Shown here: positions 7,193-23,642 of the stretch, piece after piece
Numbering within the stretch: position 1 is the stretch's first letter
Layout: each line of letters starts with the position of its first letter
From: a virus
Lineage: Duplodnaviria > Heunggongvirae > Uroviricota > Caudoviricetes
IMG/VR virus record: IMGVR_UViG_3300045988_033906
Coordinates: 1-31,280 of that record
Length of the DNA: 31,280 nt
Strand: one strand, 5' to 3'
Translations under genes and position numbers: made by a program
Notes under the pieces: generated by a model
Told to the model about the DNA's origin: nothing
The model's database searches: none
Seen by the model: only the letters and a program-made list of their open reading frames with translations

Positions 7193-7213
7193 TTATTGCA
7201 TGGAGAAGATAAG

Positions 7214-7471: not shown

Positions 7472-7477
7472 AGAAAA

Positions 7478-7493: not shown

Positions 7494-7494
7494 T

Positions 7495-7506: not shown

Positions 7507-7513
7507 GCTCACG

Positions 7514-7654
7514 TTATGACAAACCTATATACCCTGCTACACCAGATAATATCAAAACAACTGCAACAGCAAATTCACCATCACCAATGATACATTTACG
7601 GTTCATAACGCCAAGTGCAACAAGAGCGAACACAACGAGAATAAAAGCAATCAT
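7514..7654 (-). CDS. unannotated 46-aa hydrophobic micro-protein (two predicted TM segments)
   Basis: Below ORF-track size cutoff. ATG at 7654 with AAGGA about 6 nt upstream, immediately after the stop (7664-7666) of the 824-aa gene; translation MIAFILVVFALVALGVMNRKCIIGDGEFAVAVVLILSGVAGYIGLS; followed by the palindrome and terminator. Confidence 0.45.
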   Translation of the reverse strand: MIAFILVVFALVALGVMNRKCIIGDGEFAVAVVLILSGVAGYIGLS

Positions 7655-7663
7655 TTCTCATCC

Positions 7664-10138
7664 TTATTGCGGAGTGACATCCTGCGGTCGCCACCAGTAT
7701 GTCTGATTAAACTCTTTCTTCGAACGTTGCTCCATTTTACGCAAATAGCCTGGTGAAAAATACTCCTGCATCTGGTTAAAGATCATGTGATCGAGAGCCG
7801 CCTTCAAGTACCAGAGATTCGCACCTGGCATCAGCCCCTTCCCAAGCTTAACCAGATCACCACCAGTCTGCTCATTCTTCCCTTCCACAGCATTTAACGG
7901 TATGCCCTGAGCAATCTTCACTACGTCATCAACCAGACCAGCTACCGGGCCAAGCATCGACGCCAGCGCGCCGCTTCCGTACCTAGTGTGATCTGACAAT
8001 AAAAAGTCACCGTAAAGGCCAAGACCACCACCTTTCAGTAGAGCACCAAGCCAAAATTTAGCAGCATCTTCCCCCGTCATCTCGCGAGGATTACGACCAG
8101 ACGCAAGGTCGTTAAGTTGCTGCGACAAAGCGCCAAGAATGGTCGTACTGGCAATAAACGTCGCAATATATGCCGCACGCCCACCAGCAGACGGCATCCC
8201 CATAGCGCGTGACCAGTGACGCATAACAACCGAGATAGGGAACGATTTAAACAGGAAAACACTTCTCGTTAATTCACCTTTCCATGTTCCACGCTGAATA
8301 CCAGAACCGGTTATCAGTTGCTCACGTGCTCCCGGTGTAATAACAGCCATATCAATTTCTTCAGTTACGGCACCGAGCAGTTTACGCATTGCCTCAAATT
8401 TCACGCGTTCAGGCTCACCAAGATGTTTAACTGCTGAATCAGGGATACGCATAATGCTTTCCGGTGTCAGCATCGTATTATTACCGTTCCCCCAGTCCTC
8501 CTGTTGCGCCAGCTTCCATACGCTCCAGTCTGTGTCAGTAATCCCTTTGCTTTTCAGGATACGAAAATCAGAGTCATCGAGGCTACGAAGGTCTGGTGTC
8601 CGTGACACTACTTCTCCCAGGCTTCCCATCATAGTTACGCCATAGGCGCGCTTGTGCGCATCTGACCATGCTGTAAGCCCACTGGCACGCATTACCGCCG
8701 TTGCCGCCCAACGAGACACAGACGGCCCCATATTATCCATCGCCCAGCGGTTAACGCTGCCAAGTAGAGATTCCATCGCCAGACCAGCTCGGCGCGCCCG
8801 CGCAAGCTCAGTACGGTTCGTTGGGTCAATAGCTTCAAGCTGGTTGCGGAATAACTGGTTCATTGGAAGGTTGGTAACCTTCGCAGACAGATACATGGTT
8901 CCAAGATCAGAGAACGATGACAGCAACGCGGATCCGAGTCTGCTGGCAACCAGCCAGTTGCGGATATTGTCAGACCATCGCGCGATGTGCGGATTCGCTA
9001 CAGGCTGTGTCTTTCCGGAAATAAAGTTGTACAGATTCTCTGTGTTGTTCGCCAGCCGCTCGACTTTACCGGTTTTACTCGGGTTAGCTGTTGCCGTTTC
9101 TGCCTTAACCTGATCAAGAAGGGAGCGGAAAACATGATCGGGGTTTGGACCATATGTTTCCACCAGTGCAATATCTTTACTGATACCTTCCAGGTGACCG
9201 ACCATGATTTCCCATAGAGAGCGATCGCCATAAAGTTGCTGATATTGCAGATAGGAATCTGCATCTTTGAAATGTATCTGTCGTGATGCATTACCACGGT
9301 TAGCACGTGCGCCGGAAATTCGCATTCCGGTATCAGTAAGCTTATTCAGCCCACCAGTAGCGATCGTGTTATAAGCCTCTCCAAGAAATGCAGACAACTC
9401 GGCATCGTTCATCAGTTGTCCATCGGCTCGGATATAATATTTGCGATCCAGCTTACCTATAACATCGCTAACCCACTTATCCTTTGATACCGCCCCAACC
9501 TTTTCCATAGAATGATGTTGAGGGATCCCCCAGTTTTCGAGATAGCCAATGTCCCCACCAGCATCATTAAACCGGCGGCGCAGTAGCTCTGTCACTTCTC
9601 TCCACGCCTTAGCACCTTTTCTTGCTTTAGCATTGCCAGTATTTTGCCCCCGCATTTCATATACCAGGTCACGTACGCCCGCTTCATCTTCAAACAGACC
9701 AAAAAAGCGAGGATCAACTGCTTCGAATGCCTCCTGCAATTGACTCAATGCATAATCACGGGTGGCTTTTGTTCTGGATTCAACAGAGAGGAAATTCGAT
9801 TTACCGTCTGCATTAAAAGCAATAGTACGGTTAAGAGCGCCAAGTTTCCCATCAGCCCCTTGATAGCTATTGATAAATTTATCCAATCTCTGACGTGCGG
9901 CTATAGTGAGGGCCACACGACGTTTCTTTAATGCCGCTTCTCGCTGTAATTCTTCAGATGCCAATTGTGCTGCACGATATAGCCGCTCTGATTCGGAAAG
10001 TTGTCTCCACGACATCGTGTCATCACGAGCAATGGAGCGCATATTTCGATAAATGCGGTCTTCAATGTTCTGTATTTCTCGCGCCGTTAACGTGCGCTGC
10101 GCCGCCTGCTGGACCGCTTGTATACATTCCTGTCTCAT
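7664..10138 (-). CDS. internal virion / ejection protein (large)
   Basis: 824 aa; RBS GAGAGG before ATG 10138; last of a run of large genes between tail tubular genes and tailspike, the position of T7 gp15/gp16-type core proteins; no enzymatic motif recognised. Confidence 0.7.
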   Translation of the reverse strand: MRQECIQAVQQAAQRTLTAREIQNIEDRIYRNMRSIARDDTMSWRQLSESERLYRAAQLASEELQREAALKKRRVALTIAARQRLDKFINSYQGADGKLGALNRTIAFNADGKSNFLSVESRTKATRDYALSQLQEAFEAVDPRFFGLFEDEAGVRDLVYEMRGQNTGNAKARKGAKAWREVTELLRRRFNDAGGDIGYLENWGIPQHHSMEKVGAVSKDKWVSDVIGKLDRKYYIRADGQLMNDAELSAFLGEAYNTIATGGLNKLTDTGMRISGARANRGNASRQIHFKDADSYLQYQQLYGDRSLWEIMVGHLEGISKDIALVETYGPNPDHVFRSLLDQVKAETATANPSKTGKVERLANNTENLYNFISGKTQPVANPHIARWSDNIRNWLVASRLGSALLSSFSDLGTMYLSAKVTNLPMNQLFRNQLEAIDPTNRTELARARRAGLAMESLLGSVNRWAMDNMGPSVSRWAATAVMRASGLTAWSDAHKRAYGVTMMGSLGEVVSRTPDLRSLDDSDFRILKSKGITDTDWSVWKLAQQEDWGNGNNTMLTPESIMRIPDSAVKHLGEPERVKFEAMRKLLGAVTEEIDMAVITPGAREQLITGSGIQRGTWKGELTRSVFLFKSFPISVVMRHWSRAMGMPSAGGRAAYIATFIASTTILGALSQQLNDLASGRNPREMTGEDAAKFWLGALLKGGGLGLYGDFLLSDHTRYGSGALASMLGPVAGLVDDVVKIAQGIPLNAVEGKNEQTGGDLVKLGKGLMPGANLWYLKAALDHMIFNQMQEYFSPGYLRKMEQRSKKEFNQTYWWRPQDVTPQ

Positions 10139-10143
10139 TTAAT

Positions 10144-11946
10144 TTAACCTCTCAAGAAACACGCCACAGCGACATCAAACAGGCTGGAATCCTGTATTGC
10201 CTGCTCACTTTCCCTGTTCGCTTCATCCAGTACTTCACGCGCGCTGCGCGATTGTGGATTACCATCATCATCCAGCACGGTGATTATCATGTCCGGAGAT
10301 TCAAGCAGCGAGTCTTCAGCTATACGCAGATCAATATCTCCTGCCGGATCTGCCATCATTTTTTGTTCTGTCTGTTGCAATATCTTACCGGGCTCAAAAG
10401 GAGCTACTTCGTCTGGCGTCCTGACCTCTGCTGTTTTATAGAATGAAACAGCCTGAGTATTAAGTTCACTTTCTGCCTGCTGTCGCCGTGCCAGTTCTGC
10501 TCGAGCTTCAAAAAACTGACCGCCAGGCTCATGCGGTGCCAACGCGTTACGGGAAAATTCCAGGCGTTCTTGTGCCTGCCGGATTCGTTGGTCAATATCG
10601 CGAAGTCTGGCCTGTTTATCTGATCGAGCACGAGATAAAGCCTTACCGCTACCGGTTGGCTCTTCTGCAAGAATTTGTGCGCGCTGTTCAGTGAGATTTT
10701 CAATAATTCGTTGGCTATTAGCGATTTCAGACTGGTAAACCTGTCTATCGCCACGCGGCAAAAGCTGCGCGGCCTGTTCTTCAAGCAACCGATTTTCTAT
10801 AGCGCGCGCCGTTACTCCATCATCTACAGATGACAGAGCCTCATTAACTGCCTGAGACAGCAGACTCCTGTGCCCAGGAATTTCACTGAAAGATGCAGAC
10901 TCAACAATGCTGGCAACGTCTACAGGTCTCCCCTGGCTAACATCAGACATGGCTTTTCGCAGAGCCTGAATGTGCGAATTACGCGAAAGCACGTTGATCG
11001 GAACGCCGGGAGCAATATCAATTTCAGCATGATGAGCGGCATTCGCCGCCAGTGCAGCATCGATATCAACTGGTGAAAAATTTGGTGCGCTTGTAGACTC
11101 GCCGCGAGAGTTAATAAATCTGCCGACACCACCAAACGCCACCCCAAGAACAGCATCAATAGCAATTGCCTGTCGATCCAACACATCATACTGGTTAGCC
11201 ATTTCGCTATAGCCACCATCACGAAGCGTTTTTGCAGTAAGCCCACGCTGTGCCATACCGAACGCAATATTTGTACCTGCGGCATAGGCAATATCTGGCG
11301 TTGCACGTACTGCTGTTGCTGCGGCGCGTCGCACTGAACTTTCACCCGTCCGCGCAAGCTGGGCCGCCACACCTTCCGCCAGCGCACCACCAGCACGTAA
11401 CCCGAGGCTCATAGGGATCAGTGTTCCGGCACCAGCAGTAATACCCTGCACTAATCCCGCTTCCTGCGCCGTCCTGAAATCAACACCCTGTGCTGTCAGC
11501 CGTTCAAACTCAGAAAAACCCTGTAGAGAAGTTACCGCCGCAGCACCTCCGACCGGACCACCGAGCGTTGTACCGACAACAGCCTGCCCTCCCATATCGA
11601 ACAACCCATAAAGGACCTGCCCGGCGGTTCCGGTTGTCGCGGCATCAGGCGTCAGCCGCTTAACCTGCTGCTCTGCTAGTTTTCTCTGCTCGGCAATGTA
11701 TGAAACTGAAGTGTCATTGAGCGAGGTGTTTTCGTTAACAAACTGAGCAATCGGGGATACGATTTTATCCACCCCTGCCCATAGCAACTGATCTGGCTTT
11801 GCCACCAGCCCGGAGTACAAACCAGACAATGCCGCTCCTACAGCATTGTCGAAAAAACCAACATCGCTGTTAAAGCCAGCTGGATTTGATGCTGCTTCGT
11901 CAAGCTGCTGATTCTGGTTTACTGGATTAAGGCCAAAGTAACTCAT
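10144..11946 (-). CDS. internal virion / ejection protein, Gly/Ala-rich with coiled-coil C-terminal part
   Basis: 600 aa; ATG at 11946 overlaps stop of upstream gene (ATGA); position in ejection-protein block. Confidence 0.65.
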   Translation of the reverse strand: MSYFGLNPVNQNQQLDEAASNPAGFNSDVGFFDNAVGAALSGLYSGLVAKPDQLLWAGVDKIVSPIAQFVNENTSLNDTSVSYIAEQRKLAEQQVKRLTPDAATTGTAGQVLYGLFDMGGQAVVGTTLGGPVGGAAAVTSLQGFSEFERLTAQGVDFRTAQEAGLVQGITAGAGTLIPMSLGLRAGGALAEGVAAQLARTGESSVRRAAATAVRATPDIAYAAGTNIAFGMAQRGLTAKTLRDGGYSEMANQYDVLDRQAIAIDAVLGVAFGGVGRFINSRGESTSAPNFSPVDIDAALAANAAHHAEIDIAPGVPINVLSRNSHIQALRKAMSDVSQGRPVDVASIVESASFSEIPGHRSLLSQAVNEALSSVDDGVTARAIENRLLEEQAAQLLPRGDRQVYQSEIANSQRIIENLTEQRAQILAEEPTGSGKALSRARSDKQARLRDIDQRIRQAQERLEFSRNALAPHEPGGQFFEARAELARRQQAESELNTQAVSFYKTAEVRTPDEVAPFEPGKILQQTEQKMMADPAGDIDLRIAEDSLLESPDMIITVLDDDGNPQSRSAREVLDEANRESEQAIQDSSLFDVAVACFLRG

Positions 11947-14456
11947 TGCGGAATATCTCCAGAGAATCTCTGACGCTTCTGTGTCAGATTAAGAACAACG
12001 GGAGAACCATCATCTTTCAGCAGATAACCAGTACCAAGTTTCACCAGGTACTGACTATCGCCGTAACTTTGCAAACCATACTGACCAGGCGGTGTTTTTA
12101 TCCCGGAGCCGACAACTTGTTCATTCCAAGCCTGATTAACCTGCTTATCGAATTGCTCCGCAGACATTCCCCACGGCAAAAGGACATTCCCCATTCCGTT
12201 ATAGTCATGCACGCCACCTGTAGCTACGTTAACAGCCTGTTTCCAGACATCATTGTCAATTTCGCCTGATACCACGCCTTTTTTCGCCATCACACCAGCG
12301 TAATAATCCTTTGCGATCTCGTATGCCATTGATGCCCCCTGAGCGTCACCAGCAAATGCATCCTTCACCATGTCAGAAAACTCAAGGCGAAGATCAGCAT
12401 CTTTAGGCATCGGAATACCTTTCGCATCATCAGTACCTTTACGAGCCGCCGCGCCAGCAAGAATTGTCTGCGCAGCGGTTTCAGGAGACACGGAAACATC
12501 CGGATTAAACCAGTTTTTTTCTGCCAAAATACCACCTGGCTTATCCATCAGTATCCCGGCAACGGCAGCAGATGGAGCGTTGGCACTGATCTGCTGTAGT
12601 GCTGACATATACACCTGCCCACCACCAGTGCTCTGCCTGATGGTATCGAGATATGCTGCCTGTTGGGAAACTGGAGCATCACGAAAGAAAACACCGATCT
12701 GATTGGCCTCATTTTTGGAAAAGAACGTCAGTGGAGTGCCATATGACTTAGCAAGGTCACTGACCTGAGCGGCACGCAAGGCAACGCTCTGTCCAAAGTT
12801 ATCCTTATTGCTCATGTCGATAGGCTTTGCCTGTCCGGCGGCAAGAGAGAACTGCACAGGATCCGATTGCCGCTGCTTTATCACCTGATTTGCAGCCGAA
12901 ACAACGTTGTCATAAAGAGCTGCGCGTGCCGCATACCCCTCCCCTGTCTCACCAGTATCCGGGCGTAATTGCTCAACATATGCTGTAATGCTGCTTGTCG
13001 GCATGTTGCGGAAAGAGCCTATATACTGTCCGGCGATTTGCGTATTTCTGAACTCGGTATATCGCAGGTTTCCTTCTCTGACTCCATAAGCTGCAATAAA
13101 ATCAGCCTCACCAGGTGGGTTAGGAAATTCAACGCCACGCATATACGCAGATGTCGCATCGCGAACTTGGCTGTCAATCATCGTTTTATATTCAGCCTGC
13201 TGCTGCCGACGCAGTTGATCCGCCTGTCGCATAAAACTTGCCTGCGCCTCAGGAGATGCCGCATCGAATGCTGCATTACCGGTATAGCGTTTGGTGTTGG
13301 TTGGAATTGTTGATAAACCAAGTGCTGCACTGACACCAGCAGTTAACTGCTGATCACTGTATGGCTGGCTACCGTTCTCATGATGGATAATGGCTGCACA
13401 AAGCGCCTTCAGGGTATCAGGATTAGATGCATCGAGAGGCTCATCAGCAGAAACGCCAAGTTGTTCGCACACTGCTTTGATATACGACATAGTGTCATTT
13501 TTATCAGTAGGCGGTGCCCAGCGATTAATTATCTCGCTGACGGTATCGATACCCTGCCGCTGATACGACATCAGGTTACGCCCTAATGCACGAATCCCGT
13601 GCTCAGGTGTTTCGAATTTAGCAAATCGACCATCATCACCGGTCTGGCCTACCCACGGATTAGTTTTGCTGTATTCGAGATTTCCTGGGTTATTGTTGCG
13701 TATGCCACGGACACGCTCGGAAGAGCCACTATCTGCTACAGCACGGCGAGCTCCAGAAGCAGTATCACTTAATTCGCCATTACTTTGGATGAATGCGCTC
13801 GCATTGTTTGCCGACCACTGTGACAATGCAGCATCAGCAACCTTCTCTTTAAACTCGACTTTCTTGGCCTGGATTTGCTCGTCGCTCCAGCCATGCGCAA
13901 TGCCGTAATCCTCAATTTGCTGGAAAGTTTGCTTATTAGCCAATACGTATGCGGCGTTGTCGCCATACAATGCTGCGGCATTTTTACCATTGTTCAGCAG
14001 CGTAGCCTGAAACTGGCCTTCTTCGTATGCATTTATTTGCCCTATCTCGTGCCGCCCGGCCTGTGTAGTGAACTGAATGCGCTGCTGCTGCGCCTGCTGC
14101 ATGAAAGCATTACGAGCCTGTTCATCCGGCAGCGACATAGCCAGTTGCTCGACCTGGGCATCAAACTGCTGCGTATACTCCTGACCTTTTCCAATAGCAT
14201 TTTTCCCTTTCAGGTTAAGCAAACCTGTTTCAGGGTTATTCAGCAAATCGCTGCTTATCTGACTGAGGTTAAGAGATGCCTCCTGAGCCAGAGCGATATT
14301 GGCACGCTGTTTTGCCTGACCAAAAACATCAATTGCCTCTTCCCCTGCCCGAACAAAAGCATCACCAATACCTGGCTGAGAAAACGTCTGCAAGCCTGCT
14401 GACTGAACTCCACGACTCTCAACCTGACGTCCGGATACTGTTGGTACGACTGGCAT
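11943..14456 (-). CDS. internal virion / ejection protein (837 aa); contains conserved GIRNNNPGNLEY motif region, possibly cell-wall-active
   Basis: ORF-track start 14531 is GTG; in-frame ATG at 14456 has strong RBS GGAGG and overlaps the upstream stop (TAATG), so 14456 is the likelier start. Size and position match T7 gp15/gp16-like core proteins; enzymatic assignment of the NNPGN motif is unverified. Confidence 0.7.
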   Translation of the reverse strand: MPVVPTVSGRQVESRGVQSAGLQTFSQPGIGDAFVRAGEEAIDVFGQAKQRANIALAQEASLNLSQISSDLLNNPETGLLNLKGKNAIGKGQEYTQQFDAQVEQLAMSLPDEQARNAFMQQAQQQRIQFTTQAGRHEIGQINAYEEGQFQATLLNNGKNAAALYGDNAAYVLANKQTFQQIEDYGIAHGWSDEQIQAKKVEFKEKVADAALSQWSANNASAFIQSNGELSDTASGARRAVADSGSSERVRGIRNNNPGNLEYSKTNPWVGQTGDDGRFAKFETPEHGIRALGRNLMSYQRQGIDTVSEIINRWAPPTDKNDTMSYIKAVCEQLGVSADEPLDASNPDTLKALCAAIIHHENGSQPYSDQQLTAGVSAALGLSTIPTNTKRYTGNAAFDAASPEAQASFMRQADQLRRQQQAEYKTMIDSQVRDATSAYMRGVEFPNPPGEADFIAAYGVREGNLRYTEFRNTQIAGQYIGSFRNMPTSSITAYVEQLRPDTGETGEGYAARAALYDNVVSAANQVIKQRQSDPVQFSLAAGQAKPIDMSNKDNFGQSVALRAAQVSDLAKSYGTPLTFFSKNEANQIGVFFRDAPVSQQAAYLDTIRQSTGGGQVYMSALQQISANAPSAAVAGILMDKPGGILAEKNWFNPDVSVSPETAAQTILAGAAARKGTDDAKGIPMPKDADLRLEFSDMVKDAFAGDAQGASMAYEIAKDYYAGVMAKKGVVSGEIDNDVWKQAVNVATGGVHDYNGMGNVLLPWGMSAEQFDKQVNQAWNEQVVGSGIKTPPGQYGLQSYGDSQYLVKLGTGYLLKDDGSPVVLNLTQKRQRFSGDIPQ

Positions 14457-15001
14457 TATAATCCTCCGGGTAATCTGGTTCCTGCTGCTGCCCCGATTGG
14501 CGCAGGAGTGCTTTGAGTAAACGGACTCCACGTCCCACCAAACATCTGGTACGCACCGTATGCCTTCAGAGGCGCAGTGAGCAATGTTGTTGCTGCTCCC
14601 ACATTCCCCTGTTTACGGGCTGAACTGGCTTCTGCTTTATAGTTGGCAGCCTGAACCTGATAACCGTAAGCCTCGCGTTGCGCGTTATTCACCGTCGTCA
14701 GCGAATCAAGAACGCCAAACTGGGCAGTGTCGCCAAATATATCCAGCGCGTTACCTGTAGATAAATCAGCGCCGGTAGCCCCCATTGTCGCCGCCTGTGT
14801 ACCAAGCCGCTGTCGGGTCTCTCTGCGTCGTTGCTCAGCTTCAGCGTTACCTCTGTTTATTGCATCATTTGCCTGAGCTGTGGCTATATCTGCGTTCGCT
14901 TCTGCAACCTTCGAGGCATACTTTCCCTGTTGGTACTGGGTGTATGCCTGAATGCCACTCATGGCGAGCATTGCGCCACCAGCAATAACCGGATCGCACA
15001 T
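14456..15001 (-). CDS. internal virion protein (T7 gp14-like by size and position)
   Basis: 181 aa; RBS GGAGAG before ATG 15001; stop/start overlaps on both sides (TAATG). Confidence 0.6.
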   Translation of the reverse strand: MCDPVIAGGAMLAMSGIQAYTQYQQGKYASKVAEANADIATAQANDAINRGNAEAEQRRRETRQRLGTQAATMGATGADLSTGNALDIFGDTAQFGVLDSLTTVNNAQREAYGYQVQAANYKAEASSARKQGNVGAATTLLTAPLKAYGAYQMFGGTWSPFTQSTPAPIGAAAGTRLPGGL

Positions 15002-15465
15002 TATTTTCTCTCCATGTGAAATCTGTGGAAATTAAGACCAAGAGCACCATAAGGCGCGGCTTCTTCAAGCCTGAATCCAAGCCAGTGCAGCCATGCTTTG
15101 GCAACATGGTTTCGCTCGTCGACGTAGTTTTCCAGGCGCGGATAAACTGCCAGCATCTGCTGCAATACAGGGCGGCAGTGGCGAAGAAATGTCTTCTGAT
15201 ATTTTTCAATACGGCTGGTTCCTACCAACCATGGCGTACCATTGCCACCGATCATTGACGCCGGAGATACGCCAAACATGGTTACCAGTTCTCCGTTCGC
15301 AAATCCTGACCAGGCCATAGTCGCAGTGCGAAGACCAACACGCAGCGCATCTTCGGTAGTCATCAGCGATACCGCATACAGTTCGTCAATATCAGCCTGA
15401 CGAACATCCGGCAAAATCATCTGAAGATGCTCTTCGGTAGCGGGAATAATTTGAACATCAATCAT
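15001..15465 (-). CDS. internal virion / assembly protein (T7 gp13-like by size and position)
   Basis: 154 aa; ATG 15465 overlaps stop of tubular B gene (ATGA). Confidence 0.55.
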   Translation of the reverse strand: MIDVQIIPATEEHLQMILPDVRQADIDELYAVSLMTTEDALRVGLRTATMAWSGFANGELVTMFGVSPASMIGGNGTPWLVGTSRIEKYQKTFLRHCRPVLQQMLAVYPRLENYVDERNHVAKAWLHWLGFRLEEAAPYGALGLNFHRFHMERK

Positions 15466-17936
15466 CAGAATCCCCCAACAGTAAGGCGAGGAATAACGGC
15501 AAGAACAGACAGCGGCAACGGGTCAAGCTGACGGATTCTTACGCGTCCGTTTTTACCCCAGTTACTGTCCAGTTTCACTTCTACTTTTCCGGTAGCGTCA
15601 TCAACAGGATCATCGTAGAACTCGAATTCACGCTGTGGATATTCGTACCATTTACCGCCGGGCGTAGTCGCCCAGATGCCGCGACTGGCATTCACAACCA
15701 GAGTAACGGACGGGATCACCTGTTTTTTGTCCAGCAGCGTTTCCTGTCCGTTAATGTTGATATCCAGTGTTTCGAATTCAGCAGTTATTGGCAGGCCGAT
15801 GTGCACTACAGCCCCCGGAGATTCCAGCGTGACGGCACCTCCGGAAACCACTTTCTGTGGTTCCACGTTCGCATCAGAGAGAATGTTTACGGTCTGGCCT
15901 TCAAGATGAGACAGGCCTCCAAATGTCCGGCGCGCCATCTGCCAGTTCGTGGTGGCCACATTCCTGAGGGATAGCGGGACGTTCCTGTTAGCACGAACCA
16001 CTACTGCGGTATTACTGGTTACAGAAATAATGTCGCAACGTAATTCTTTTGACACTTCATCGCCAGTATCAGGATCAGTTCCGGTATAAGGGAACTGTAG
16101 TTGCGCGCCGACATCACTACTGGTGAAGTACGCACCACCAGAAACACTGATTGTATATTCCGCACGGTAATCCCATTCACCAGAACCACCAGTGATGGTC
16201 ATCGTTCTGTCAGACGTATTTCTTCCATCATAGCTAAGGCCAGAATCAACAAAGAAAGCATCTTCATCGCTGGTAAATAAACGACTGGACAGTCTCTCGA
16301 TGTATCTCACTGTTTGCCCGTTAACGGTTCTGTTAACGACGAAATACACCGCATCTTCATTGCCTTCGCTGATACTGCATGTGCTTTCATATTTTCCGGT
16401 ACTGGATTGTGGTGCCCATGCAAAAACCTGCTGATCACGCAAATAGGTCATCACCAGTAATTTACCGTCATCACGAATGCAGAAGGCGCTGGAGTAAGGG
16501 ACAATCGAGAAGCACCAGTCAACAATGCTGTGCTTCTGAAAAAGATGATTGGCAAGGATAGTCAGGTCGTTCCCCTGATAGCCGTCAACATCGAATGAAT
16601 AGGCCAGATCACGGACAACACTGCCTTTCTCCTGGACGAACAGAGCAATATTCGCCACAGCAATTGGTGGGACGTTGCTCGAGCCATTTGATCCCTGAGA
16701 GCTGAATGCAAATGATGATGGGGTTAACACTTTGTTCTGGTCGCCGGTGATGACGTACTCACCTCCGGAAGTCAGTGCCACCAGCGAACCGACATCAATC
16801 AGGTGGCGGATCTCATTAACCTGACGCCCGGCATAGGTGTAGATAATTCTGTCGTCATCCTGCGTAGGATTGCTTTTGCCAAAATCCTTATAATCCCCGG
16901 TACGGCTGGCCCAGATAGTCTGAGGGAACGCAGTCGATGCGGCGAAGTAAAGACGTTGTTGATAATAAACAACAGTGCCAGGATAACCATTAACACTGTT
17001 CCAGGCATATTTAGCCCATTTATAGCTGGCATTATCCTCGCCAACTACCTGCGAAGGGATATAGGAAATCACCTCGGCAGTTGCAGTAGTTCCATTTGCA
17101 GCAGTGATACGGGCAATGCCAAAACCACTGTGCAGATATTCCCACTCAATGCCAGTATCATCATCACCGGATCCGCCCCAGCCATCCCATGATGTGCCTT
17201 CTGTATGCGAAGGGCGCAAAGTGCCTGTTTTGCCTGCTGTAACGGCGCGATAGTAGTTACTGTCTGCACGGCGAATATCGCCAATCGACGTACTCTTACT
17301 GGTTTCCCATACCTGCACTGAATCCACTGCAGGCTGTTCCAGATAGAACAATTTGCCTACCTGCTCCGCGCCAAAAATAGAGGCGCTTGCCGTTAACGTA
17401 ATTGTCCCGGTGCTGGCGCTGGCATAAACCGTCACTGACTCGTCAATATTGATATCTTCAAATGGCCCGTTCTTCGTTACCACATCAACCAGTTGCCAGT
17501 TGTCATGCGCATAGCGACGCAACTCTTTCGGCGGGTATGCCGGATGAACCAGCGTAAGCACGTCTGCGCTTTGCGTGAATTTAATTCGGAACAGATCGGC
17601 TTCAGTATATGGAGTGGCAATTTCATAAATAACATTGCTGCTGTTCAGCACCAACGCACCATCTTTGATAACGCGCATGTACTGGTGTCCGAACTCCAGA
17701 GCATAGGTCTGAACCGTCGAGAACTGGAACGGGATCAGGCGGCATTTCCGATTTTGGTATTTGGCGGCACCGACAAAACGCGTACCAGGTCGATTCTCAA
17801 CGCCGCCATACTGCCGCACGATAAAGTTATCGCACTTGCGCAATGCCACCTGGTACTTCGCCATGTCGATACGTCCGTACAACGACGGTCCAATCTCACC
17901 ACCAGCAAAGCTGGGCTGGATCCAACTGATAGCCAT
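15465..17936 (-). CDS. tail tubular protein B-like (nozzle)
   Basis: 823 aa; N-terminus MAISWIQPSFAGGEIGPS...GVENRPGT parallels T7 gp12 N-terminus (MALISQSIKNLKGGISQQP...GLQKRPPL); follows the gp11-like gene with ATGA overlap. Confidence 0.75.
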   Translation of the reverse strand: MAISWIQPSFAGGEIGPSLYGRIDMAKYQVALRKCDNFIVRQYGGVENRPGTRFVGAAKYQNRKCRLIPFQFSTVQTYALEFGHQYMRVIKDGALVLNSSNVIYEIATPYTEADLFRIKFTQSADVLTLVHPAYPPKELRRYAHDNWQLVDVVTKNGPFEDINIDESVTVYASASTGTITLTASASIFGAEQVGKLFYLEQPAVDSVQVWETSKSTSIGDIRRADSNYYRAVTAGKTGTLRPSHTEGTSWDGWGGSGDDDTGIEWEYLHSGFGIARITAANGTTATAEVISYIPSQVVGEDNASYKWAKYAWNSVNGYPGTVVYYQQRLYFAASTAFPQTIWASRTGDYKDFGKSNPTQDDDRIIYTYAGRQVNEIRHLIDVGSLVALTSGGEYVITGDQNKVLTPSSFAFSSQGSNGSSNVPPIAVANIALFVQEKGSVVRDLAYSFDVDGYQGNDLTILANHLFQKHSIVDWCFSIVPYSSAFCIRDDGKLLVMTYLRDQQVFAWAPQSSTGKYESTCSISEGNEDAVYFVVNRTVNGQTVRYIERLSSRLFTSDEDAFFVDSGLSYDGRNTSDRTMTITGGSGEWDYRAEYTISVSGGAYFTSSDVGAQLQFPYTGTDPDTGDEVSKELRCDIISVTSNTAVVVRANRNVPLSLRNVATTNWQMARRTFGGLSHLEGQTVNILSDANVEPQKVVSGGAVTLESPGAVVHIGLPITAEFETLDININGQETLLDKKQVIPSVTLVVNASRGIWATTPGGKWYEYPQREFEFYDDPVDDATGKVEVKLDSNWGKNGRVRIRQLDPLPLSVLAVIPRLTVGGF

Positions 17937-18541
17937 CAGGACAACCTCGCAATGGTAAACTCATCAACCGGTGGCTGTGGTTCCTGTGATTCATTCTGGC
18001 TATGCGAGCCAGCACTAAGAATCACGCGATTGTACATATTGAGGGCAAACGTACCGAGGTCTGCATTCCCAGTCAGCGCCATGTTAATAGCTGCCGCAAG
18101 ACGCCAGGCCAACGCCTCCATAAAAATGGCATCAAACATGTTCACATCTGTAACGCGAGAGACATACTTGAGCCATGCCTGAGGCTGGTCTGTGTAGATC
18201 AACTTTCCTGTTCCGTTGGTGTCTGCACCAACTTCGTACTGAACGCGCATTGCTGCTGTTGGATTGCGTACACCAGGAAGCATAATTTCAGTAATGCGCA
18301 GACAATCGGACGGGTACTGGTATGCGTATTCCCAGTCTGGCGGCGGATTGTTCGTATCTGCAAGCGTCACGCGTTTGGTAGCAAAGTTCCAGTCAAAATC
18401 AGAAAGCACAGCATCACGGCAGGCCTCAAAGTGCAGCGAACATTCCCCCGCTTCCTTGCTGGCTTCCGTCAGGCTGTTAATGCTGCGGCTGTTGCCAATA
18501 TTGGACAGCGCACGATTACAGATCTCTACTACAGAGGCCAT
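17936..18541 (-). CDS. tail tubular protein A-like (adaptor/gatekeeper)
   Basis: ORF-track start 18544 is GTG; ATG at 18541 overlaps upstream stop. 201 aa; N-terminal region (EICNRALSNIGNSRSINSL...DWNF) resembles T7 gp11 (AVNDILASIGEPPVSTL...GWTF). Confidence 0.7.
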   Translation of the reverse strand: MASVVEICNRALSNIGNSRSINSLTEASKEAGECSLHFEACRDAVLSDFDWNFATKRVTLADTNNPPPDWEYAYQYPSDCLRITEIMLPGVRNPTAAMRVQYEVGADTNGTGKLIYTDQPQAWLKYVSRVTDVNMFDAIFMEALAWRLAAAINMALTGNADLGTFALNMYNRVILSAGSHSQNESQEPQPPVDEFTIARLS

Positions 18542-18864
18542 CACTCACCTCCGTTACCGTACAGAGTTTCAGCCGCTGATTTTTCTACATCCCCGGAAAC
18601 AGGAGCGATCGCCATATCAGTGATCTGCAGATCGGCGCTGCGATTAACGCCATCGTCAGTTTCTCTGGCAGACAGGCCTCGAATAACAGCCTTTGCAGTT
18701 ATCATCACTTCTGTTCCGACGCCCTGAGGTTGCGCCTTCAGCTTATTCAATGTGTCGTTATTAAGAGTGATGCACAGCCCCCACGGGTATTCATCGCGAG
18801 TTCTGGTTTCTCCGCTCTCATCCTGGTAGCTGTCAGTGCCGGTTTTGAGGTTTACGAGTTCCAT
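18541..18864 (-). CDS. hypothetical virion-module protein
   Basis: ORF-track start 18870 is GTG; ATG at 18864 has RBS AGGAG 6 nt upstream; 107 aa; no homolog recognised. Confidence 0.5.
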   Translation of the reverse strand: MELVNLKTGTDSYQDESGETRTRDEYPWGLCITLNNDTLNKLKAQPQGVGTEVMITAKAVIRGLSARETDDGVNRSADLQITDMAIAPVSGDVEKSAAETLYGNGGE

Positions 18865-18882
18865 ATACACTCCTGCAATAAA

Positions 18883-18896
18883 GGGGCCGAAGCCCC
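18883..18896 (-). terminator. short GC hairpin with UUCG loop followed by U-tract (possible attenuating terminator after capsid genes)
   Basis: On minus strand GGGGC TTCG GCCCC then TTTATTG; located between the 111-aa gene stop and the next RBS. Stem is only 5 bp, so weak. Confidence 0.3.
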
Positions 18897-18914
18897 TTGT
18901 CTGATCCGCGAGGC

Positions 18915-19250
18915 TTACACGCCCAGTTCTTTACGCTTATCTGCGATCTTCTCGCGGAGCGTTTCGGCTTTGGCGTTATGGTGTGGCTTCTCGTTAAAGA
19001 GCAATTCGTACTCTTCACGGAGCTTATCCAGTTCACCATCATCTGACACATCGTTGATGATTTTGGTGCTGGTTGCTGCCATTGACACCTTTCCTGCAAC
19101 TTTTGCTTTTGCCTGTCTGGCTGCATCGTTAACAGGTTCCAGTGCGCTACCAGGCTCACCTTCGTATTCGATTTCTGCCCCCTCCGGCCACAGAGTGTTA
19201 TGGATATGAGAGAGGCGCAGAACGCGGTATCTTGGTTTCTCACCTGACAT
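18915..19250 (-). CDS. hypothetical virion-module protein
   Basis: ORF-track start 19259 is GTG; ATG at 19250 has RBS AAGGTGA; 111 aa, acidic, no homolog recognised. Confidence 0.5.
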   Translation of the reverse strand: MSGEKPRYRVLRLSHIHNTLWPEGAEIEYEGEPGSALEPVNDAARQAKAKVAGKVSMAATSTKIINDVSDDGELDKLREEYELLFNEKPHHNAKAETLREKIADKRKELGV

Positions 19251-19260
19251 CGATATCACC

Positions 19261-19698
19261 TTAACCAGTTACTTTTGAGCGGATCGGATACGGCGTATTG
19301 GCATCAACATCAAGACTGATACCAGCAGTGAATTCGCCAGCCGTTAGTGGGCCAGTTGCGACGGAGTAGTTAACACGCAGATATCGCTGAACACCGGCAG
19401 GCACCTTTGCAGAAACAACTCGTTTACCTGCTGTCAGGGCGGTCTTTGCCAGTGCGCCACTATCATAAATAGTGGTCCATGAGCTGTTATTCTCACTCGT
19501 CTGCAACTGGATGTTTACAGTTGCATCACCGCTTGCCGCGGCGGCTGTGTTAACCAGCGCCCAAAACTCAAGCGGGTAACCCACGCCGATATCACGACGT
19601 TTTCCGTCAATTGGACCGAGATCGATTACGTCAGTAGAAGCCGCGGTATTCGTAACCGCCTGAGCTTCGGAGAACATCAACAGTTTGTCGGTGATCAT
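19261..19698 (-). CDS. putative capsid decoration / cement protein
   Basis: 145 aa, Ala/Thr/Gly-rich beta-type composition; RBS GGAGAAAG; immediately downstream of the major capsid gene (position-based call). Confidence 0.45.
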   Translation of the reverse strand: MITDKLLMFSEAQAVTNTAASTDVIDLGPIDGKRRDIGVGYPLEFWALVNTAAAASGDATVNIQLQTSENNSSWTTIYDSGALAKTALTAGKRVVSAKVPAGVQRYLRVNYSVATGPLTAGEFTAGISLDVDANTPYPIRSKVTG

Positions 19699-19749
19699 CT
19701 TCTTTCTCCATTAGTGGGTCTGTTACGACCCACAGGTTAATAACAGGCG

Positions 19750-20742
19750 TTACACCACGCGGGCTTCTGTTTCCAGAAGCGCATCAGTCTCACGGATTGG
19801 TACACCACGGAATGAAGTCCACCACTCGCCTTCTGTCTCTTTTACGCTGATCGCCAGAGATGTTTTCTCCAGAGATTGCAGATCAAGAGCCTGGCCTACA
19901 GTGCGGTTCATGTAGAACACCGGGCGGCCCATGCCACGGTTTGGAATGCGATGCAGTGCTTTAACCATCAACTTCGCAATATTTGCTGCAGAGGAAGGTT
20001 CTGAAAGATTGCTGACATCGATGTTTGCAATGCGAACGACATAACGCCAGTCACGCAGAGCAAGTCCGTTATCCCATTTGTAATGGGTACGGTAGCCTTC
20101 GTACTTGCCGCCATTAGCATCTTCCAGTGTCACCTGGCCTTTATCTTCCATCTGAATGCCAGCCTTCTGCCCTTTCGGGAAGATGCCATGCACGGTGTTT
20201 TCGCCCCACACCACTAACCAGATTGAGGTGTTATCTGTACCCGTGCCACCAGCATCAATGATGTTCTGAGCATTACCCGCAGACAGGCTGGAATAGCGGG
20301 AGGACAGTCCCATAAACTGCTGAGGGTTAACGCTGGAATCACCATAAAACAGCGTCTGCGCCATCTGCTGATTCATCGCTTCAATAAATGCGCGGTCTTC
20401 AGACAGGCGGAATTCGGCGGTATTGCCGTTCAGATCAGCCAGTGACTTATCGACTTCAGCATAGGTTTCCAGCATGCCAACGGAATCGGTTACCTGCACT
20501 GTGGTTGATTTGCTTGGCTGTACGCCATAGTTCAGCAAACGCCAGGTAGCTGAAGGTAAACCAGAACGAATGGTGGTTCGGTGTCCGGTAGGAAGGTTCC
20601 CTTCGACAAAAGGCATATCCTGAAGGATCGGGTTAGTTTGACCGAGAAGCTCGATAATCTTATCGACTTTCCCGTTTGGATCGACGCGCTTACCCCAGTC
20701 AGCCAGCGTTAGCGCAGTTAAGCCTTTAACAGCCATTGTCAT
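19750..20742 (-). CDS. major capsid protein
   Basis: 330 aa; strong RBS GAGAGGAA; directly after scaffolding gene and before decoration gene; size and order typical of podovirus major capsid proteins. Confidence 0.8.
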   Translation of the reverse strand: MTMAVKGLTALTLADWGKRVDPNGKVDKIIELLGQTNPILQDMPFVEGNLPTGHRTTIRSGLPSATWRLLNYGVQPSKSTTVQVTDSVGMLETYAEVDKSLADLNGNTAEFRLSEDRAFIEAMNQQMAQTLFYGDSSVNPQQFMGLSSRYSSLSAGNAQNIIDAGGTGTDNTSIWLVVWGENTVHGIFPKGQKAGIQMEDKGQVTLEDANGGKYEGYRTHYKWDNGLALRDWRYVVRIANIDVSNLSEPSSAANIAKLMVKALHRIPNRGMGRPVFYMNRTVGQALDLQSLEKTSLAISVKETEGEWWTSFRGVPIRETDALLETEARVV

Positions 20743-20750
20743 TTCCTCTC

Positions 20751-21446
20751 TTATTTGCCATAGAGCACTTCGGCCGCACTACGCTGGCCTTCATTACCAC
20801 CGGTGACCATGCCATCTTCAGACATCGCCTTTCCGATTTTCACGAACGTCTTGACCAGATCAGGGTGATTACCCAGTCCGGTGGTGTTCAGATATTCTTT
20901 GAGCTCAGGTGTCCCGAACTGGTCAAGCGCACGCTGCGCGGCGCTAAGGTTAGAAATCAACTTGTCGCCACCGATTTCTTTGTCAGCTTTTACATCAGCA
21001 GCCCACTGCTCGGTTGTTTTCTGCCAGGCGTCTGCCTGGCGCTGCTGAACACCTGCCAGAATCTTCGGATAAGCATCAACCAGCTTTTGCGCTTGCTCGT
21101 TGGTCAGGTTTAGTTCTCGCGCCACCGGCTCGAATTCCTTCAACGCTTCTGTATCCAGCTCTACGCCTTCGGCAGCCTGAAACTCGTACTTCTCAGGCGC
21201 ACCCTCTGGTTTATCGCCGTCCTTTTTTTCATCCTGCTTATCGTTTTCAGGCTTTTTGTCAGCAGCAGGTTTATCACCATCAGCAACAGGTTGTGGCTTA
21301 TCACCTTCCTGTTGTGATGGATCACCAACTGGAGCAGGGTTATCACCTGCAGGCGCTGACGGTTCTGACGCAGCCGGAGCTGCTCCACCATCGACTGGTT
21401 GCTCATTGCAAAGACGGCTATACAGCAAACGCTCAAATAAATTCAT
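20751..21446 (-). CDS. scaffolding protein
   Basis: ORF-track start 21452 is GTG; ATG 21446 has RBS AGGAG. Pro/Ala/Asp-rich low-complexity N-terminus then helical charged region, between portal and capsid genes. Confidence 0.7.
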   Translation of the reverse strand: MNLFERLLYSRLCNEQPVDGGAAPAASEPSAPAGDNPAPVGDPSQQEGDKPQPVADGDKPAADKKPENDKQDEKKDGDKPEGAPEKYEFQAAEGVELDTEALKEFEPVARELNLTNEQAQKLVDAYPKILAGVQQRQADAWQKTTEQWAADVKADKEIGGDKLISNLSAAQRALDQFGTPELKEYLNTTGLGNHPDLVKTFVKIGKAMSEDGMVTGGNEGQRSAAEVLYGK

Positions 21447-21448
21447 GA

Positions 21449-21745
21449 TCACTCCTGTTCACTGGCCTCTTTGGCCATCTTCAAATACTGTTCAGGGCAA
21501 TGCGCCATAACGCGCTGAAACAGTTCCAGAGCCAGATTGCGTTGCCCCTCATTAAATGCCATTGCCATAGCGTCCATCGGCGAGATAGCGGAAAACACAC
21601 GGCCTTTCTCCAGTACCGACCAGACAACCCGACGCCCCTGTTCACAGCTCATGACAAAGCGAATGTCATCAATTTCACGCTGTGCCATGTCACGTTGCTT
21701 ACGGGCGTTTTCTTCTTTCAGTTGATCGTCTTCGTAATCTGTCAT
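21449..21745 (-). CDS. hypothetical small protein between portal and scaffold
   Basis: 98 aa; ATG overlaps portal stop (ATGA); charged helical protein; no function recognised. Confidence 0.5.
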   Translation of the reverse strand: MTDYEDDQLKEENARKQRDMAQREIDDIRFVMSCEQGRRVVWSVLEKGRVFSAISPMDAMAMAFNEGQRNLALELFQRVMAHCPEQYLKMAKEASEQE

Positions 21746-23421
21746 TGTGATTGCCCACCCTGACCACTAACTGCATTCGCCATAGCTGACAAAACACTCG
21801 GATCCGAAGTTTTAGCTTCGCTTAGCGTCTTGGCACCCTGTGCCGCCGCCATCCCCATCGCCATCATTTGTTGCTGCTGTTGCTGCTGTGCCCGTTGCTG
21901 GCGAGCCTGCTCAACCTGTTCCTGCGGAACAATGACGGTTGGAGACACTCCGGACATATCAGCGAATGCATCGATCGCCTGATCAACGTTGAGTTTGTCG
22001 AGAGCTTCTGGTTTCGCTTGCGCAAGTTGACCAATGAAGTTGACCGTGGATGCCAGACTGGACAGGCCGATAGACTTCTGCGCCTGAGCCATGACGGAAA
22101 TGTATTCGACCTTCAGGGGCATACCTTCCATCGCGTCAGGCGGTGGCGGCAGCATGTTTTTACGCACCATCATCGAGAAAGCGCGGTCAATGAGAGGATT
22201 AAGACATTCGTCGTTCAGACGCTCCAGAACCGGCCCCAACATCAGAAGTTTTTCTTCTTTCATTTCGATCACCGCTTCAACAGGCATCGAGCGGGTATTG
22301 ATGTTCTGCAACATCATGAACAGATCGACAAAGTAGGCGCTGTTAATGATTTGACGAGTGTCCTGAATGTCTGCCACCAAATCTGCTGTACTGGGGTTAA
22401 CCAGATAAGCAGGCCTGAAACCATCCTGACCAGTAATCTGATCGATATACGTGATGTCGCCAGGAAGAAGGGAGGCGCGCTGATTCTTGAGGGAAGTCGG
22501 AGCAACCATCGGCGGATTGGTGGCTTTATCAATCAACTGCGACTTGCGCTTCTGGAGAAGCTGCAATGCCTTAACAGGTCCAAGCGCCAGCATACCCGGG
22601 CATGATGATCCATAAACATCTTCGCCGTTAACTTCCCAGCGCGGAGCCATAATTGGAAACTCATCGAATCCGGACTCACGCAACAACTTGTCGTTATCGC
22701 CACCAACCTCGTAATAAACCGATTTGAATGGCTTGTTCTTGCTATCCAGCTTCGATGTATCGCGGTCAATGTTCGGGTAAACCGAATGCATCACTTCAAT
22801 CCACTTCTCGTAGGTGCCGCTTTCCCACATGCTTTTTACGGATTCGCTGACGTTATTTAGTCCGAATTCCTGAACAAGCTGACGAACAGTCATAGATAAC
22901 TTGCGAAAACAGGTGTCCACACTGCCACGAGGTGAGTTAGCCAGGTAGTAACTGCCTATCGGGAATGGCATTGTGCGAATGATGTCCTCGTCATCCTCCA
23001 GCACCGCCATTGCACCAGTGCTGTATGTGCCGAGGCTTCCGTATAACTGCGGCAGCGACTGATAGAGATTCGACTTATTGAACATATCGTTCATACGGTT
23101 CTGCACCGCCTCAAGCCACAACTTAACAGGGCCATAATCCATCATTTCAGGATCTGGCGTAGCCAGGCGAAACCACGGACGCGCGGGGCTTGTGATGCCT
23201 GACATCATGCCGCTGGCGAGAGTGCGCGCCGCCATAGTCCCGGTCGAATCAATAATGCGTGTATTGCGTCGATCGTTACGGTTGACCTCAGAAGTCAGAA
23301 AGCGGGAACCACGCGGGTTGATGTAATCACTCAACTCGCGCCAGTGCGGCTCGAACGACTGACGCTCGCTTTCAAGTTGTGCGAACTGTTTGTTCAATCG
23401 CTCTTTAGTTGTTTCCGCCAT
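21742..23421 (-). CDS. portal (head-tail connector) protein
   Basis: 559 aa; RBS GGAG; follows terminase in the late operon; size and position match podovirus portal proteins; C-terminus Gln/Ala-rich. Confidence 0.85.
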   Translation of the reverse strand: MAETTKERLNKQFAQLESERQSFEPHWRELSDYINPRGSRFLTSEVNRNDRRNTRIIDSTGTMAARTLASGMMSGITSPARPWFRLATPDPEMMDYGPVKLWLEAVQNRMNDMFNKSNLYQSLPQLYGSLGTYSTGAMAVLEDDEDIIRTMPFPIGSYYLANSPRGSVDTCFRKLSMTVRQLVQEFGLNNVSESVKSMWESGTYEKWIEVMHSVYPNIDRDTSKLDSKNKPFKSVYYEVGGDNDKLLRESGFDEFPIMAPRWEVNGEDVYGSSCPGMLALGPVKALQLLQKRKSQLIDKATNPPMVAPTSLKNQRASLLPGDITYIDQITGQDGFRPAYLVNPSTADLVADIQDTRQIINSAYFVDLFMMLQNINTRSMPVEAVIEMKEEKLLMLGPVLERLNDECLNPLIDRAFSMMVRKNMLPPPPDAMEGMPLKVEYISVMAQAQKSIGLSSLASTVNFIGQLAQAKPEALDKLNVDQAIDAFADMSGVSPTVIVPQEQVEQARQQRAQQQQQQQMMAMGMAAAQGAKTLSEAKTSDPSVLSAMANAVSGQGGQSQ

Positions 23422-23435
23422 TTCAATGACTCCGG

Positions 23436-23642
23436 TTACTGACCAAGCAGCGTTTTACCGCTGGTATTAGCGGTTGATGTGTCGCCCTGAGAACCGGTAA
23501 GCAGCGTAGAACTACGACCAGCAGCAGCGCGACGGCGACGAGTTTCTTCGTCGCGGGCATCAACAACGGCGGCATCCTGCTCCTGTGGTGCTGCCTGAAC
23601 TTCTGGTGTTGCAGGCACTGATGGTGAGCTACCCATGCACAT
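23436..23642 (-). CDS. hypothetical small acidic protein upstream of portal
   Basis: 68 aa; its RBS/start context (GGAGTCATTGATATG) is nearly identical to the portal start context (GGAGTCATTGAAATG) 220 nt downstream; low-complexity sequence, so weak. Confidence 0.35.
   Translation of the reverse strand: MCMGSSPSVPATPEVQAAPQEQDAAVVDARDEETRRRRAAAGRSSTLLTGSQGDTSTANTSGKTLLGQ

Follow-up and report, generated by a model that had tools for sequence, protein, structure and literature searches.

The window analysed in this work is the whole of the virus record IMGVR_UViG_3300045988_033906 of the IMG/VR database, a stretch of 31,280 nt which belongs to the Caudoviricetes. It represents 31 kb of a phage genome of about 39 kb and includes one end of the prophage. 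We are mainly concerned with positions 7664-23421, the range of a first reading made from the sequence letters without database searches (the original prediction), which saw there a T7-type virion module in a lambdoid temperate context. The open reading frames (ORFs) it named all exist in the minus strand with exactly the sizes it gave (559, 233, 330, 202, 823, 154, 181, 837, 600, 824 and 703 aa), and the last of them, the tailspike, falls outside that range. We are confident that positions 7664-23421 contain, in intact form, the module by which a temperate podophage of phiV10 type (genus Uetakevirus, epsilon15 group) assembles its virion and delivers its genome, and that this phage is integrated in the chromosome of E. 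coli beside the gene yfgI. The gene identities and homologies described below, as well as the conservation of catalytic residues, are direct observations.

The module has 98.2-98.4% DNA identity, over 100% of its length, with phiV10, phiv142-3, vB_EcoP_ZX5 and others, and the proteins coded by its structural ORFs are 96-100% identical to their phiV10 counterparts over their full length. Such values demonstrate that these are real genes and not chance ORFs. In the practice of the International Committee on Taxonomy of Viruses the threshold for a genus is about 70% identity. The gene order is collinear with the annotations of phiV10 and epsilon15: terminase, portal, capsid, adaptor, nozzle, five internal proteins, tailspike, serotype-conversion gene, lysis cassette and attachment site. 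The window has both features which define membership in Uetakevirus, nucleotide identity to the type member and the characteristic gene order; its arrangement is the known architecture of the genus and not a new combination. The original prediction was right in choosing epsilon15 and phiV10 for comparison. At least 80% of the region 1-25000 is present in 236 complete E. coli genomes, and the nozzle gene has 484 relatives in IMG/VR; the 80 relatives listed are all 99-100% identical. On both sides of the module the similarity is more variable: 77% of positions 23400-31280 is covered, at 96.6% identity, by the O157 typing phages 9 and 10, which are close relatives of phiV10, and 44% of positions 1-8000 is covered by phiV10 at about 87%. 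The phage homology starts at about position 1686, which is the junction with the host beside yfgG, yfgH and yfgI; these host genes flank the prophage in positions 1-1700. This start places the attachment site just downstream of yfgI. The phage identity, together with the host genes to the left of 1686, indicates that an integrated prophage of phiV10 type, genus Uetakevirus, has one of its ends in the window.

At the right end of the module we find the head genes, in the minus strand as are all the tail and internal protein genes. The portal (559 aa, 21742-23421) belongs to the T7 gp8 family (PF12236, E = 5e-187) and is 98.9% identical to that of phiV10. It is followed by a small head-module protein of 98 aa related to Bbp19 (21449-21745; PF25181 Phage_Bbp19, E = 1.9e-16; phrog_528) and by a protein of 233 aa (20751-21452; phrog_458), the scaffold of the original prediction, to which PHROGs and GenBank give the label "protease" or "endoprotease". 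This label is without support: the protein has no match in Pfam or NCBIfam, protease families included, nor among PDB sequences. Its N-terminus is acidic, Pro-rich and of low complexity and the charged remainder has many Ala, Glu and Lys residues, a composition which resembles that of scaffolds, and from its sequence it probably acts as one. The major capsid protein (330 aa, 19750-20742) is of the epsilon15 gp7 type (PF20911 GP7, E = 2e-149). Three small genes complete the head: a Bbp16-like capsid cement protein of 145 aa (19261-19698; PF21190 Bbp16, E = 4.7e-47), a protein of 111 aa homologous to phiV10p12 and epsilon15 gp9 (18915-19250; phrog_590, no Pfam match), which is 100% identical to that of phiV10, and a capsid decoration protein of 107 aa similar to epsilon15 gp10 (18541-18864; PF21628 Gp10-like, E = 1.1e-51). 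This part of the genome is mosaic within the genus: in positions 18541-20742 the capsid, cement and decoration proteins are just 36-43% identical to those of epsilon15, and for the capsid protein better scores than with epsilon15 are obtained with Burkholderia phage KL4 and Bordetella phage BMP-1.

The tail genes are an adaptor of 202 aa (17936-18544), analogue of T7 tubular protein A, and a nozzle of 823 aa (15465-17936), analogue of tubular protein B. Both have solved homologs in the same PDB entry: the adaptor matches chain 8ck1_E, "Connector Protein" (E = 7.6e-27; phrog_394, tail protein), and the nozzle matches chain 8ck1_A, "Tail Nozzle" (E = 6e-218). The Legionella phage structure 9efk is a more distant solved homolog of both. 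In two relatives, Pseudomonas phage UFJF_PfDIW6 (7562-10031) and Xanthomonas phage Usaquen (13992-17095), the nozzle gene is divided into two ORFs, which may reflect a frameshift, an error in the sequencing or a true division of the gene. Another peculiar relative is Limnohabitans phage DC33 (PQ492659, 39 kb). Its taxonomy line places it among the Inoviridae, which are filamentous phages with single-stranded DNA; it encodes epsilon15-type capsid, adaptor and nozzle proteins and an internal protein of 3125 aa, so that its filing is apparently a misclassification.

The tailspike (703 aa, 4907-7018, minus strand) is a chimera. Its residues 1-285, the part which binds to the virion, are of epsilon15 type and 69-78% identical to the tailspike N-termini of Uetakevirus, and residues 216-703 are 84-87% identical to tail fibre genes of AV101, a phage of 157 kb, and of EcoIv28_Lewi. 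The full-length combination was found in no phage record. About 650 bp with plus-strand ORFs separate the tailspike from the gene of the 824-aa protein.

Between nozzle and tailspike there are five genes for putative internal virion proteins. Internal virion protein A (154 aa, 15001-15465; phrog_308) is a relative of T7 gp13, and internal virion protein B (181 aa, 14456-15001) belongs to the T7 gp14 family (PF24072 T7_gp14, E = 6.7e-7, 29.8 bits with a cutoff of 27). Three large proteins follow, of 837, 600 and 824 aa. The first of them (11943-14456; phrog_992) is homologous to epsilon15 gp15 and occupies the slot of T7 gp15; it is 97.5% identical to phiV10p18 and has further matches to PHROGs labelled as endolysin and transglycosylase. 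The original prediction had noted in it an NNPGN motif which it considered conserved and unassigned, and had proposed to look for cell-wall hydrolases in this protein and in the 824-aa protein. The motif is present in residues 255-259 (nt 13680-13694), and it can be assigned: it opens a peptidoglycan hydrolase domain of PHA02564/Enc34 type which extends over residues 245-370 approximately (13347-13724, minus strand). Residues 248-367 match the Hafnia phage Enc34 endolysin in its catalytic domain (PDB 7q47, E = 3e-17) and residues 248-398 match the N-terminus of the cryo-electron microscopy (cryo-EM) chain Gp29 (PDB 9vvp_L, E = 4e-38). The Enc34 endolysin defines the PHA02564 family; it has an all-helical fold similar to the alpha lobe of lysozyme, with Trp79, Tyr95 and Glu131 as proposed catalytic residues, and is muralytic on permeabilised Gram-negative cells, an activity measured for Enc34 ORF39 (PMC8943055). 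All three residues are conserved in the window: W313 (in RWAPP), Y325 and E360 (in HENGS) align with Enc34 W79, Y95 and E131. The protein has both the similarity and the conserved Trp, Tyr and Glu which define the family by sequence. The phiV10 record names PM2 protein P5 as similar to this gene, and P5 has since been placed in the same type of lysins (PMC9502842). In Pfam and NCBIfam there is no model for the NNPGN segment. From these sequence matches the 837-aa protein is predicted to be a virion-associated cell-wall hydrolase of Enc34 type.

In the relatives which we have sampled the same carrier has a different content. The Enc34-type domain is found in Uetakeviruses only. A soluble lytic transglycosylase (SLT) domain is found centrally in the homologous carrier of four relatives (PfDIW6, BMP-1, Ab9 and Usaquen), and Skadi-4 has a C-terminal lysozyme domain of T4 type. 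In KL4 the SLT domain is on the protein of the 600-aa family and not on the 837-aa type carrier. The carriers of Ab31, Vibrio 1.021.C and DC33 have no recognisable muralytic domain, which indicates that the carrier can function without one. The presence of Enc34-type, SLT or T4-type lysozyme domains, or none, suggests that a conserved carrier can exchange one muralytic cassette for another.

The 824-aa protein (7664-10138; phrog_684, virion structural protein) is homologous to epsilon15 gp17. The search for hydrolase families proposed in the original prediction gave no match in Pfam, NCBIfam, PHROGs or PDB sequences, a negative which holds at the level of sequence, since the AlphaFold model obtained from a shallow alignment has a predicted local distance difference test (pLDDT) value of 37.5 and is unusable. 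The protein has Gly-rich hydrophobic segments towards its C-terminus. A homolog search with this protein, made with the single sequence and again with a diverse alignment of six sequences, listed only proteins with at least 85% identity. We will see below that it is a distant relative of T7 gp16, without a detectable hydrolase or SLT domain.

The 600-aa protein (10144-11946; phrog_1145, without functional label), a candidate for an internal protein, is homologous to epsilon15 gp16 and phiV10p19. It is the only member of the set without annotation anywhere ("hypothetical"). Its family is large: a HMMER search of the full library gave 1344 representative clusters. An alignment of 77 sequences (profile A1) shows an N-terminal helical module rich in Gly and Ala (residues 1-390 approximately), a coiled coil and a C-terminal tail which ends in AV.CFLRG, with Cys596 invariant. 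Residues 260-278 are the only strongly hydrophobic stretch of 19 residues in the internal protein set. The AlphaFold (AF2) model is all-helical with a pLDDT of 80.8 and has no significant fold match in the PDB (best E = 0.49); the search of PDB sequences with profile A1 gave only low-complexity noise. A similarity to PET hydrolases found with the single sequence (E = 0.13-1) is due to chance: the profile search did not reproduce it and the model is all-helical. The best matches in the viral structure library BFVD are putative internal virion proteins, ddrB-like proteins and others with a "large polyvalent protein associated domain".

In the longer members of this family, which reach 2125 aa, both ends are retained and enclose ART-PolyVal, ddrB-ParB, GGDEF, RelA/SpoT, Zeta toxin, LPD3 or SLT domains. 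A member with 1740 aa is found in the same slot in a 35-kb contig, with the order portal, capsid, adaptor, nozzle, a 140-aa protein, a gp14-like protein, a 674-aa protein, the 1740-aa protein itself, an 833-aa protein, tailspike and lysis genes. The copy in the window has no Pfam or effector domain; two or more disparate effector domains, which characterise polyvalent proteins, are found only in its longer relatives. As a tentative proposal, to which we give a little less than an even chance, the 600-aa protein may be the minimal, cargo-less form of a carrier chassis widespread in podophages, whose gene has a fixed slot in the ejection operon and which in its relatives accommodates between its two ends effector cargo of up to about 1400 aa. 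If so, this slot would be the place where such phages load the proteins which are injected with their DNA, and the same plug-in logic may also cover the 837-aa protein, with SLT in some phages and an Enc34-type domain in others. The family could then help to locate injected anti-defence effectors in podophage genomes.

We have probed the relationship with T7 at three levels: pairwise BLASTP, Pfam families and profile-profile comparison with hhalign. The profile alignments were built from the window and 11 relatives (epsilon15, Tyrion, PfDIW6, Ab31, Usaquen, BMP-1, KL4, Vibrio 1.021.C, Skadi-4, DC33 and Ab9) and were compared with alignments of the proteins of T7, SP6, phiKMV and P-SSP7. At the first level nothing is found: portal, adaptor and nozzle give E = 0.05, 25 and 2.5 against T7 gp8, gp11 and gp12, none of them significant. 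At the second level only two Pfam families are common to the window and T7, PF12236 of the portal (and of T7 gp8) and PF24072 of the 181-aa protein; the window proteins do not match the Pfam families of T7 gp9, gp10A, gp11, gp12 and gp13, including Tube and Phage_nozzle. At the third level the matrix of comparisons is cleanly diagonal. Its significant or best pairs are portal with gp8 (E = 4e-11, 442 columns), adaptor with gp11 (E = 1.1e-4, 164 columns, nearly full length), nozzle with gp12 (E = 6e-11), the 154-aa protein with gp13 (E = 8e-11; E = 6e-8 in a profile hmmsearch), the 181-aa protein with gp14, and the 824-aa protein with gp16 (E = 3e-5). In the latter case residues 308-422 align with residues 796-904 of the gp16 group, outside the SLT domain of gp16. 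The nozzle match is also central (residues 320-572 against 349-603): the gp11/gp12-like N-terminal patterns of the original prediction could be reproduced neither here nor by BLASTP. It is at the profile level that the relation of the adaptor, the nozzle and the gp13-like and gp16-like proteins with T7 is seen (E from 1e-4 to 6e-11).

Outside the diagonal, and for the capsid and scaffold pairs, E is about 0.05 or higher; in the matrix of tail and internal proteins the off-diagonal values are at least 0.2. The capsid protein is not significantly similar to T7 gp10 (E = 0.045) and belongs to a different family, since T7 gp10A is PF21703. The 233-aa protein is not significantly similar to T7 gp9 (E = 0.08) and has no match to PF05396. 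The two remaining internal proteins have no partner: against gp15 the 837-aa protein gives E = 0.46 and the 600-aa protein E = 0.2, profile A1 gives E of at least 0.2 against the gp15 group, and the 600-aa protein resembles none of the T7 proteins. A one-to-one correspondence of the ejection set with that of T7 is therefore lacking, as the original prediction had anticipated: the 154, 181 and 824-aa proteins are counterparts of gp13, gp14 and gp16, and for the 837 and 600-aa proteins T7 has no counterpart.

The diagonal matches suggest an old and distant kinship with T7 for the portal, for the tail and for a part of the internal core. From these comparisons the T7 relation is real, yet remote, and does not go beyond portal, tail and some internal proteins; the shell of the head is not of T7 type. 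The description as a T7-type virion module is adequate at the profile level for the former and fails for the capsid, decoration, cement and 233-aa proteins. The gene order is indeed collinear with T7 gp8-gp17, as had been proposed; the proposed order had omitted the four small genes of 98, 145, 111 and 107 aa, and had counted the tailspike within a range which does not contain it. The module has most features of the transient tail homology group of Hardies et al. 2016: a portal of the gp8 family, an adaptor homologous to gp11 and a nozzle homologous to gp12, with internal virion proteins (IVP) A, B and D after the nozzle. A homolog of gp15 (IVP C) was not detected by hhalign. The distant T7 kinship of epsilon15 and phiV10 phages is already known from publication, RefSeq notes and public annotation. 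Hardies et al. 2016 (PMC4819975) reached the same conclusions for phages of this type, assigned epsilon15 gp17 to IVP-D and likewise did not find a gp15 homolog. The RefSeq record of epsilon15 gives HHpred matches of gp11 with T7 tubular protein A, of gp13 with GNAT acetyltransferases and of gp15 with soluble lytic transglycosylases.

A different history may be considered, in which a genuine T7-family module of Autographiviridae type has been captured recently by a lambdoid prophage, giving a new hybrid. The collinear order and the two Pfam families in common with T7 go in this direction, yet pairwise BLASTP gives no significant similarity with T7 gp8, gp11 and gp12. Neither the capsid nor the decoration and scaffold proteins are of T7 type: the gp10A-like capsid and gp9-type scaffold of Autographiviridae are absent. 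These phages also have their own single-subunit RNA polymerase and are strictly lytic, whereas the annotation of the whole phiV10 genome includes no RNA polymerase, and does include an integrase and a repressor-like helix-turn-helix protein. A tblastn search with the nozzle in 50,697 phage records matched 221 of them, from hosts such as Pseudomonas, Xanthomonas, Vibrio, Pelagibacter, Bordetella, Burkholderia and Liberibacter; among the 45 listed there are no Autographiviridae. The module is 98% identical in the named Uetakeviruses and 30-45% identical in phages of Pseudomonas, Bordetella, Burkholderia, Vibrio and Pelagibacter, which shows that it is an old, separate lineage. A recent capture is extremely unlikely. 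The intact phiV10-like module has another competitor, a decayed and non-inducible prophage remnant whose genes no longer make virions. Just one end of the prophage is in the window, the moron region which precedes the tailspike, after the 824-aa gene, has about 1 kb less than that of phiV10, and the chimeric tailspike is full-length in no phage record, all of which speaks for a remnant. Yet the 15 structural ORFs are all full-length, without frameshifts, and 96-100% identical to those of phiV10, which is infectious, and the terminase, lysis and replication genes are likewise intact. We consider decay unlikely.

A third alternative concerns the 837-aa protein, in which the NNPGN segment might be a structural or binding motif instead of part of an active peptidoglycan hydrolase. 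In its favour are the absence of a model for the segment in Pfam and NCBIfam and the homologs of Ab31, Vibrio 1.021.C and DC33, which lack a recognisable muralytic domain. However the segment belongs to a match with E = 3e-17 to an enzyme of measured muralytic activity, with its three proposed catalytic residues kept, and the central SLT domain in four sampled homologs points to selection for a muralytic function. This alternative is quite improbable, and a hydrolase of Enc34 type is our preferred reading. Several points should nevertheless be set against our interpretation as a whole. The evidence on this prophage comes from sequence, and the window does not extend to the integrase and immunity end. 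The link of the adaptor with gp11 is weak when taken on its own (E = 1e-4, probability 56%), and so is the match of the 181-aa protein with gp14 in hhalign (E = 0.014). Incorporation of the 600-aa protein in the virion is suggested just by its position and by the context of its family.

With these reservations a virion can be proposed in which the head would be formed by a portal of the T7 family, a capsid of epsilon15 gp7 type with HK97 fold and decoration proteins similar to gp10 and Bbp16, with the 233-aa protein probably serving as scaffold in its assembly. The short tail would consist of the adaptor and the nozzle, distant relatives of gp11 and gp12, with tailspikes specific for the O-antigen. 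The five proteins encoded after the nozzle may be packaged in the head above the portal, expelled before the DNA and used to build a channel through the envelope. Their packaging, the order of ejection and their location in the envelope are taken by analogy from the T7 and epsilon15 literature; in epsilon15 there is an internal core above the portal and a tube is formed during infection (PMC5850374, review). The 154-aa protein would be an assembly factor similar to gp13, and the gp14-like protein of 181 aa would presumably form the outer-membrane pore of the channel. The 837-aa protein may open the peptidoglycan locally by means of its Enc34-type glycosidase domain. The gp16-like protein of 824 aa would presumably contribute to the inner-membrane or tube part of the channel, and the 600-aa protein, helical and Gly-rich, is probably membrane-active.

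The surroundings of the module are those of a phiV10-like phage. A terminase pair is found upstream of the portal, with the small subunit in positions 26246-26920 and the large one in positions 24774-26249, both in the minus strand. Between the terminase and portal genes there is a gene for tRNA-Arg with anticodon TCT (24070-24146, plus strand), which is also annotated in the O157 typing phages 9 and 10. The Lambda P-like helicase loader of the original prediction is present (30430-31230, minus strand; PF06992, E = 1e-56; phrog_109, E = 5.6e-92), a loader of the lambda P family being the mark of a lambdoid replication module; in the annotation of phiV10 a DnaT-like initiator is found upstream of P. 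The lysis genes, as had also been pointed out, lie at the end of the prophage beside the host junction (1813-3619, minus strand), where they form a cassette with two holin-like proteins, a GH19 endolysin and an Rz spanin (PF16931, PF05449, PF00182 and PF10721), collinear with phiV10p27-p30. Next to it there is an O-antigen acetyltransferase-like gene (3782-4873, plus strand). Its G+C content is about 30%, against about 50% around it, and it has no alignment at the DNA level with the oac region of phiV10: it is probably a swapped serotype-conversion moron.

The finding changes little, as it describes again the published architecture of epsilon15 and phiV10. The practical gain is a cleaner annotation: the 837-aa "head protein" becomes a putative hydrolase of Enc34 type, the 824-aa protein appears as gp16-like and without hydrolase, and the "protease" label of the 233-aa protein is found to be unsupported.

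The closest known systems are phiV10 (NC_007804), phiv142-3 and vB_EcoP_ZX5, which share with the window not only a module of 98.2-98.4% DNA identity but also the gene order, terminase, tRNA-Arg, P loader and lysis cassette. The differences with phiV10 are found in the C-terminal, receptor-binding part of the tailspike, of which residues 1-239 alone align (78% identity), in the O-acetyltransferase gene and in the moron region which separates the gene of the 824-aa protein from the tailspike. Epsilon15 (NC_004775) has the same order from gp4 to gp20, with 81% identity in the portal, 85% in the adaptor and 88% in the nozzle, and its gp15 also has a domain of PHA02564 type. The capsid is instead only 43% identical, gp16 33% and gp17 28%. 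The internal core and the infection tube of epsilon15 have been seen by cryo-EM and cryo-electron tomography.

T7 is much further away. It has a collinear order and homology at the profile level for the portal, adaptor and nozzle, for gp13 and gp14 and for gp16 in its central part, and presumably the same mechanism, in which internal proteins are ejected and extend the short tail across the envelope. On the other hand the window has no pairwise similarity with T7 and no homolog of gp15, in whose slot there are two proteins of 837 and 600 aa. The muralytic domain is in the first large protein and of Enc34 type; that of T7 is an SLT domain and is found in gp16, at its N-terminus. The families of capsid and scaffold are different, and the phage in the window is temperate.

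Two further comparisons concern individual proteins. The phage polyvalent proteins described by Iyer et al. 2017 (PMC5512222) resemble the longer relatives of the 600-aa protein: these relatives have effector domains and are encoded among virion genes. The window copy differs in having only the N-terminal module, the coiled coil and the C-terminal tail, with no recognisable effector domain. The Enc34 endolysin and the lysins of PM2 P5 type align with the window in their start, RNNNPGN, in the Trp of RWAPP, in the Tyr and in the Glu of HENGS. The Enc34 endolysin acts in lysis as a free enzyme and has a membrane anchor at its C-terminus, whereas the domain in the window is found midway in a virion protein of 837 aa and, being embedded there, would act at the entry of the phage and not in lysis.

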